Of a stretch of DNA of 4,305 nt, positions 2,041 through 2,247 are shown piece after piece (position 1 is the first letter of the stretch; every line of letters starts with the position of its first letter). The DNA comes from a virus (lineage: Duplodnaviria; Heunggongvirae; Uroviricota; Caudoviricetes): positions 1 to 4,305 of the IMG/VR virus record IMGVR_UViG_2582580934_000008; one strand, 5' to 3'. A program made the position numbers and the translations under genes. Below the pieces are notes generated by a model. It saw only the letters and a list, made by a program, of their open reading frames with translations. It did not search any database and was not told the origin of the DNA.

Positions 2041-2247
2041 ATGACCAGCAATATCATCAGCGCCATTCTGAACCTTGTATTCCTGGAAGTGGGTGTAATA
2101 GCGATTTATCTGCTTAACAAGCTAACAGGACAAAAAGAGCGCTTTATTGTTCTCAACGTTCATTACCTCGCCGCCTATACCAGAGGTCTTTTCCCGACCA
2201 CTATTGGCGCGGTGCTCATAGCGTTTGTTATTTGGCTTATCGGGTAG
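2041..2247 (+). CDS. Small predicted two-helix membrane protein (68 aa), unknown function
   Basis: ATG 2041 lies 10 nt after the cox-like stop. The product MTSNIISAILNLVFLEVGVIAIYLL...LFPTTIGAVLIAFVIWLIG has two hydrophobic helices separated by a short basic loop. The SD is weak (GAAGG 18 nt upstream). The same frame is open back to an ATG at 1906, which would overlap cox-like by 125 nt; I judge that less likely. Confidence 0.5.
   Translation: MTSNIISAILNLVFLEVGVIAIYLLNKLTGQKERFIVLNVHYLAAYTRGLFPTTIGAVLIAFVIWLIG

Follow-up and report, generated by a model that had tools for sequence, protein, structure and literature searches.

A predicted two-helix membrane protein gene directly behind cox in P88-like temperate phages, with a possible role in superinfection exclusion

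Results

Organization of the left end of a P88-like prophage

The window, by which we mean the whole 4,305-nt stretch of DNA analyzed here, is the left end of a P88-like prophage (genus Xuanwuvirus, family Peduoviridae, P2-related). The best-matching phage records were those of the Escherichia phages vB_EcoM-569R5 and 705R2 together with the ST131 prophage "Entero_P88," with 96% identity over 76% of the window. The genes and features are listed in Table 1. The start of the integrase is most likely the ATG at 993 on the minus strand, where pairing with the anti-Shine-Dalgarno (anti-SD) sequence reached -9.8 kcal/mol, and this start agrees with the 330-aa RefSeq annotation. The upstream TTG at 1008, proposed by the ORF finder, is the less likely start, with an anti-SD pairing of only -2.5 kcal/mol.

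The candidate control region contains a TTGACA hexamer at 1389-1394 and two 19-nt direct repeats, AAGATAACCRTTTGAKTAT, located at 1394-1412 and 1427-1445 and 33 bp apart. These repeats are plausible candidates for repressor operators around the early promoter. The annotated arrangement of Pe, O1, and O2 in P2 served as the model for this assignment of promoter and operators; the repeats of the window are set wider apart than O1 and O2 of P2, and a consensus promoter scan did not call the region. Downstream of it, the Cox protein matched phrog_23196 (E = 5.5e-113) and the Pfam family Phage_Cox (E = 6e-7), and it carries the RefSeq label "Cox family DNA-binding protein." With 173 aa, it is about twice as long as P2 Cox and has an acidic N-terminal extension, the Phage_Cox match being limited to residues 58-129. 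The Cox proteins of other prophages carrying orf68 have 95 or 135 aa. Further along the rightward operon, the 37-aa ORF at 3950-4063 is identical to gp07 of P88 ("membrane protein") and is kept in most P88-like early operons; it would encode a second small membrane protein on the transcript of orf68.

Table 1. Coordinates of the genes and features in the 4,305-nt window
Feature	Position	Strand	Remarks
Tyrosine integrase	to about 993	minus	
HTH repressor (C)	1063-1404	minus	HTH_3, E = 2.7e-11
Candidate early promoter/operator region	1389-1445	plus	between the divergent C repressor and cox genes
cox-family gene	1509-2030	plus	173 aa; first gene of the rightward operon
A-rich spacer	2031-2040	plus	10 nt; no usable Shine-Dalgarno; proposed cox-orf68 translational coupling site
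orf68 (phrog_14475)	2041-2247	plus	68 aa; predicted small inner-membrane protein; stop codon included
Predicted transmembrane helix 1	2053-2115	plus	residues about 5-25; KD 2.28; AlphaFold helix 2-29
Predicted cytoplasmic loop	2116-2184	plus	residues 26-48 (23 residues); short helix 32-47
Predicted transmembrane helix 2	2185-2244	plus	residues 49-68; KD 2.23; AlphaFold helix 53-67
Low-GC insert	about 2335-3020		between orf68 and DUF4761
146-aa gene	2352-2792	minus	phrog_2266 (no assigned function); converges on the early operon
69-aa ORF in the insert	2791-3000	plus	
DUF4761	3030-3371	plus	
phrog_3800 gene	3382-3699	plus	
DUF4754	3711-3953	plus	
37-aa single-helix membrane ORF	3950-4063	plus	ATG overlaps the DUF4754 stop

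orf68 is a gene under purifying selection

The gene studied here, orf68, runs from the ATG at 2041 to the TAG at 2245-2247 and encodes the 68-aa product MTSNIISAILNLVFLEVGVIAIYLLNKLTGQKERFIVLNVHYLAAYTRGLFPTTIGAVLIAFVIWLIG. Its ATG lies 10 nt past the stop codon of the 173-aa cox gene, and it is the second gene rightward of the divergent C/cox control region. In E. coli UMNK88, PGAP annotated an identical CDS immediately behind cox (WP_000203251.1, "hypothetical protein"). The profile of phrog_14475 (PHROGs v4) matched the protein end to end (residues 1-68 on 68 of the 68 profile positions, E = 6e-30). In addition, 27 homologue clusters from Escherichia, Shigella, Salmonella, and Citrobacter, with 68 to 94% identity and nearly all exactly 68 aa long, were recovered by a word-indexed search covering 5.8 billion proteins.

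Selection was analyzed by pairwise Nei-Gojobori comparison of nine diverged copies, which gave a mean dN of 0.166, a mean dS of 0.530, and a dN/dS ratio of 0.31, against 0.59 and 1.22 in the two other frames of the same region. The variable columns were distributed as 34/17/46 over the three codon positions. The reading frame was open at 67 to 68 codons in each of the relatives, and the length was conserved over a dS of about 1. The weak ribosome-binding site (see below) and the lack of any known domain would fit a chance or decaying ORF without function, but the frame-specific constraint and the conserved length argue against it, as do the 335 intact copies found in complete E. coli genomes, all of which covered at least 80% of the ORF; this reading is effectively refuted by the selection analysis and keeps next to no probability. 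Thus, orf68 is a real gene under purifying selection, a conclusion that we regard as practically certain.

The start codon was also supported by these comparisons. Codons 1-16 alone showed a dN/dS ratio of 0.23, which places the start at 2041. Conservation began at Met1 even in lineages with unrelated upstream cox genes; therefore, the start is at 2041 and not at the in-frame ATG at 1792. The longer in-frame ORF from 1792 (151 aa), which appears in a mechanical ORF list, was considered an artifact, because conservation begins at Met1 whatever the cox type, and the same reasoning led to the rejection of P0002 and P0028, two extended entries in the database.

orf68 follows cox in every locus inspected

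In every context inspected, orf68 or its homologue began 0 to 22 nt after cox. The gap was 10 nt in the window, 6 nt in the lineage with the 95-aa cox, and 0 nt in the lineage integrated at btuC; in the distant relative described below it was 22 nt, with a 33-aa ORF between the Cox gene and the orf68 homologue. This order was kept in no fewer than five different integrase-repressor-cox combinations, and the loci carrying orf68 were found at attachment sites next to dmsA, pdxB, btuC, tdk, and tamB.

At the cox-orf68 junction, neither a plus-strand terminator nor a usable promoter was found, and the sole promoter-like match near orf68 placed its -10 element inside the ORF. In P2, cox is transcribed together with the small ORF that follows it, from the annotated promoter Pe. 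The simplest reading is that orf68 is co-transcribed with cox from the early promoter, which we consider probable. With such co-transcription, orf68 would be expected to be expressed during infection or induction and not in the repressed lysogen. The best anti-SD pairing upstream of orf68 was -3.3 kcal/mol, ending at position -17; this is the weakest value among the genes of the window and near the background mean of -2.1 kcal/mol. The Shine-Dalgarno sequence was weak in all lineages. The weak Shine-Dalgarno sequence and the tiny spacer after the cox stop suggest that translation of orf68 is coupled to that of cox by termination-reinitiation, an arrangement we favor with some reservation, and that its output is kept low.

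The product is a predicted inner-membrane protein with two transmembrane helices

Kyte-Doolittle (KD) means over 19 residues peaked at 2.28 (residues 5-23) and 2.23 (residues 49-68), and orf68 very likely encodes an inner-membrane protein. The second helix extends to the C terminus (…VIWLIG), with no hydrophilic tail. All four conserved Lys/Arg residues are within the loop between the helices, and no basic residue is present at either terminus. Because both ends lack basic residues, the positive-inside rule predicts a topology with both termini in the periplasm and the positively charged loop in the cytoplasm. The predicted periplasmic exposure would be 4 residues at the N terminus and 0 to 2 residues at the C terminus. 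The sequence contained no cysteine, lipobox, or cleavable signal. An AlphaFold2 model built with the family alignment showed three helices (residues 2-29, 32-47, and 53-67) with a mean pLDDT of 73.6, and the middle helix was moderately hydrophobic and not strongly amphipathic.

The best-conserved motif of the family, KLTGxxERF..L....Y.AAY..GLFP, lies in the loop, and this segment also separates two allele classes, with net charges of +3 and 0. The center of the first helix holds the nearly invariant residues Glu16 and Gly18. The idea of Glu16 as an essential membrane-embedded charge was weakened, as this residue is replaced by Lys in one cluster, and the distant relative has Tyr or Ser at this position.

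Database searches placed orf68 in an uncharacterized family

By sequence, orf68 belongs to an already cataloged, uncharacterized family (phrog_14475; RefSeq "hypothetical protein"). No match was found in Pfam or NCBIfam, no match to a defense component was found in PADLOC-DB at E <= 0.1, and nothing besides phrog_14475 was found in PHROGs and Pfam at E <= 0.1. The family profile gave only chance matches among PDB sequences (adenovirus fiber, E >= 0.059), and Foldseek returned nothing significant for the AlphaFold model in either BFVD or PDB. No Rfam family was identified anywhere in the window at E <= 1. Within the literature library searched, no paper mentioned the family by accession or PHROG identifier, papers on P88 or Xuanwuvirus offered no functional information, and a search on fil and dhr of phage 186 yielded no relevant paper. 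Orf78 of P2 and Fil and Dhr of phage 186 were not matched by orf68 in BLASTP at E <= 10. Judged by sequence or architecture, orf68 falls outside the Imm, SieA, holin, Hok, Fil/Dhr, and Orf78 families.

The preliminary description of this DNA had proposed a 68-aa protein with two hydrophobic helices and without an assigned function, encoded directly after a cox-like gene in the early transcript. The protein and its helices were borne out by the ORF, the hydrophobicity peaks, the conservation, and the selection analysis. The placement behind cox held with the 10-nt spacing here and the same order in every locus inspected. With no terminator or usable promoter after cox, co-expression in the early transcript is likewise the simplest reading, and the searches of Pfam, NCBIfam, PADLOC, PHROGs, PDB, and BFVD left the protein without a functional match.

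orf68 is an accessory gene with two reassorting allele classes

An exhaustive HMM search of 1.84 billion representatives recovered five clusters of the orf68 family, all from Enterobacteriaceae. The only distant relative among them (P0030, 71 aa, E = 1.8e-5) is encoded behind a Cox gene in a P2-like prophage. Among 50,697 phage records, the protein was encoded in 5, all of the Xuanwuvirus type. The 5,426 complete E. coli genomes contained 335 copies in 331 genomes (about 6%), all of them chromosomal. The neighboring DUF4761-DUF4754 block was present in 1,599 copies in the same genomes; therefore, about one-fifth of the P88-like prophages carry orf68. A scan of one genome per species found no relative, the E. 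coli representative being without the prophage. Phage P88 and vB_EcoM-569R5 lack orf68, which indicates that the gene is dispensable for the phage. These results establish orf68 as a genuine lineage-specific accessory gene of the P88-like (Xuanwuvirus) temperate phages of enterobacteria.

Among six prophages with nearly the same 95-aa Cox protein, orf68 was much more diverged, with a dN of 0.146 and a dS of 0.479, compared with 0.010 and 0.235 for the adjacent cox. Two allele classes were distinguished: class A (...QKERFIVLNVHYLAAY...) has a loop net charge of +3, and class B (...HEERFIDLNIEYVAAY...) has a loop net charge of 0. Both classes were found with both the 173-aa and the 95-aa cox, so the alleles have been swapped by recombination independently of the switch gene. 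In a separate case, a prophage remnant (L029, GCA_949281645.1, 670-4200) has lost the entire region for replication and morphogenesis by deletion; int, C, cox, orf68, and DUF4761 are still present and are followed immediately by a gpD fragment and ogr.

The low-GC insert is separate from orf68 and occupies a cargo hotspot

The GC content at third codon positions (GC3) was 0.536 in orf68 and 0.511 in cox. The overall GC content of orf68 (0.454) is lowered because the GC content at codon position 2 is low (0.32), as hydrophobic codons predict. The low-GC stretch, with a GC3 of 0.28 to 0.33, is a separate insert, the borders of which were set by alignment with UMNK88 and ATCC 43896, both without it. 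Thus, while the preliminary description was right about a small membrane protein gene after cox, its placement of orf68 at the start of the low-GC island did not hold.

The insert was present in 2 of the 5,426 complete E. coli genomes. Its relatives were only distant (24 to 25% identity) and came from P2-like phages of Klebsiella and Salmonella, and its content had no Pfam, PADLOC, or PDB match. Between orf68 and the insert begins a 48-aa ORF (2259-2405), which is the 5' end of a long (152-aa) DUF4761 gene severed by the insert. In prophages of the UMNK88 type, the frame opened by this ATG continues into DUF4761. This ORF is probably a remnant and not a gene. A terminator-like hairpin with a T-run lies on the minus strand at 2284-2302, downstream of the minus-strand 146-aa gene and close to where orf68 ends; any read-through would send antisense transcription into orf68. 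The hairpin count around this position was no higher than that in shuffled sequence.

The gap between orf68 and DUF4761 (2248-3029 in the window) had at least five contents when the window was compared with loci L002, L011, L013, L014, and L021 to L026. It was empty, or it held two 35-aa ORFs, a minus-strand 78-aa gene, a 136- to 137-aa gene with a minus-strand 59-aa gene, or the minus-strand 146-aa gene with the 69-aa ORF. The gap thus behaves as a cargo hotspot, and it lies outside the described hotspots of P2-like phages (old/tin between gpA and gpQ, Z/fun, and tail-CI). A 140-aa ORF of vB_EcoM-569R5 was considered as an alternative occupant of the orf68 slot and was rejected, because its relatives sit downstream of orf68 elsewhere.

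Discussion

By kind, orf68 belongs with the small accessory membrane proteins of phage early operons. A 68-residue protein that consists of membrane helices and a short loop, with no soluble domain, is hardly an enzyme, and its most likely mode of action is to bind a second membrane protein inside the bilayer. The absence of the gene from P88, together with its predicted early-promoter timing, narrows the candidate roles to those that are dispensable for the phage and act when the early promoter is on. Its optionality, its predicted expression at the lytic turn, and its reassorting alleles are typical of genes at a phage-phage or phage-host interface. Superinfection exclusion, host takeover, and membrane toxicity, the roles named in the preliminary description, are all reasonable analogies.

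Among these roles, we tentatively place first an action in superinfection exclusion or in a block of DNA entry, although we consider it less likely than not, with host takeover as its main rival. On this proposal, orf68 would be made with cox when the phage commits to lytic growth, by infection or induction, and not in the repressed lysogen. Its product would bind another membrane protein inside the bilayer, and the preferred target would be the DNA-entry step of a second phage, with tape-measure binding and a stop of genome translocation in the manner of T4 Imm. In this way, a cell newly committed to the lytic cycle would shut out competing phages. The reassortment and the allelic turnover, in which the dN of orf68 greatly exceeds that of cox, are typical of interface genes and consistent with this proposal, and a precedent is provided by T4 Imm, the best-documented small early phage membrane protein. 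Several points weigh against it. No match to any exclusion family was found by sequence or structure, and the average dN/dS ratio gives no sign of positive selection. The exclusion genes of temperate phages, such as P22 sieA, HK97 gp15, and P2 old/tin, are normally expressed from the prophage, whereas orf68 shows no promoter of its own. In addition, nearly nothing of the protein is predicted to be periplasmic, so that it could meet the protein of an incoming phage only within the membrane.

The early membrane protein Imm of T4 (9.3 kDa) has its N terminus in the periplasm and binds the tape-measure protein of the incoming phage, thereby blocking genome translocation, and HK97 gp15 has been proposed to act like it (bioRxiv 10.64898/2026.03.06.709160). 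Like Imm (83 aa), orf68 is a small protein with no enzymatic domain; it is predicted to reside in the inner membrane with its N terminus out and to be expressed early, and both phages are contractile-tailed. However, PHROG, BFVD, and PDB searches showed no sequence or fold similarity between the two proteins; Imm is modeled with four helices and orf68 with three, and T4 is virulent, whereas orf68 is in the early operon of a temperate phage. P22 SieA and HK97 gp15 are inner-membrane proteins that block DNA entry of related phages and are expressed from the prophage; SieA has 162 to 164 aa and three transmembrane domains, and orf68 has no sequence relationship with either protein. In its most specific form, the exclusion proposal would make orf68 the first superinfection-exclusion protein that serves the lytic cycle in temperate phages of the P2 family. 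It would be an Imm-like blocker reduced to two helices, binding the tape measure of incoming contractile-tailed phages inside the membrane; co-translated with Cox, it would seal the cell upon commitment to lysis, with the two allele classes (loop charges of +3 and 0) setting different specificities. We regard this full version as unlikely.

The main rival is that orf68 is a host-takeover factor that binds a host inner-membrane protein, such as a divisome component, transporter, sensor, or protease, in early lytic growth and alters host physiology to the benefit of the phage. Phage 186 provides the analogy: in this relative of P2, the early rightward operon encodes Fil (75 aa) and Dhr (66 aa), two small, non-essential proteins directed at the host that block division and replication, respectively, and their genes lie just downstream of apl/cII. 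The similar position of orf68, its dispensability, its presumed timing at the lytic switch, and its need for a membrane partner in the absence of a soluble domain are all consistent with such a role. On the other hand, orf68 has no sequence similarity to Fil, Dhr, or P2 Orf78. Fil and Dhr are not two-helix membrane proteins, and their genes follow cII and not directly a Cox homologue. P2 Orf78 shares the position of orf68: in this member of the Peduoviridae, its small ORF belongs to the Pe operon and starts 10 nt downstream of cox. It is, however, a basic, hydrophilic protein of 56 aa (maximum KD of 0.17) and thus a positional analogue only. Fast allelic turnover and reassortment would also be less expected if the target were a conserved host protein. 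A host-takeover role is doubtful, although only slightly less likely than exclusion.

A third candidate role is that of an anti-defense factor, in which early orf68 would neutralize a membrane-bound defense effector of the host or of a prophage, such as the transmembrane effectors of abortive infection. It has been argued that counter-defense genes need early expression, whereas defense genes are usually expressed in the lysogen (bioRxiv 10.1101/2024.10.15.618418), and the predicted early expression of orf68 fits that need. The gene is also accessory, patchy, and allelically diversified, and it adjoins a cargo hotspot. However, orf68 has no similarity to any known anti-defense protein, and the family is too narrow for a co-occurrence signal. 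We consider this role improbable.

Class II holins are proteins of about 70 aa with two transmembrane domains, a charged hydrophilic C-terminal tail, and an N-in/C-in topology. The size and two-helix layout of orf68 resemble them, which raises the possibility of a lysis-type or membrane-damaging protein (holin, antiholin, or type I toxin-like) that would depolarize or permeabilize the inner membrane; its weak ribosome-binding site would hold a toxic product low. However, orf68 lies between cox and the DUF4761/replication genes and not in a late lysis cassette with an endolysin, it ends within its second helix without a charged tail, and its predicted ends-out topology is opposite to that of class II holins; it was thus rejected as a member of this class. 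A toxin of the Hok/Gef type or another type I toxin was rejected as well, since no holin or Hok family in Pfam or PHROGs matched the protein and no Rfam antisense RNA was found in the window. Moreover, early depolarization would hurt the replication of the phage itself. Membrane damage is accordingly a decidedly improbable function.

Finally, orf68 could be a modulator of the lysis-lysogeny decision whose target would be a membrane protease or sensor, much as FtsH is the target of lambda CIII, and which would be tied to Cox by co-translation. Its strict adjacency to cox, even in the most distant relative, and the apparent coupling of its translation to that of cox would fit this idea. However, about four-fifths of the P88-like prophages, and P88 itself, lysogenize and induce without orf68, and the alleles reassort freely against the cox types, so no co-evolution with the switch is seen. 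Such a modulator is very unlikely.

The present analysis corrects the annotation of orf68 with respect to its start codon, its true extent, and its separation from the low-GC island, and documents it as a clean presence/absence accessory gene that is apparently coupled to cox. It also points to an undescribed cargo hotspot just downstream. Several small phage membrane proteins have turned out to control which phages enter a cell, and they form the least understood class in phage genomes. If orf68 does exclude phages or alter the envelope at induction, it would affect phage-phage competition and phage therapy on carrier strains, and it would offer a very small and tractable model for intramembrane inhibition.
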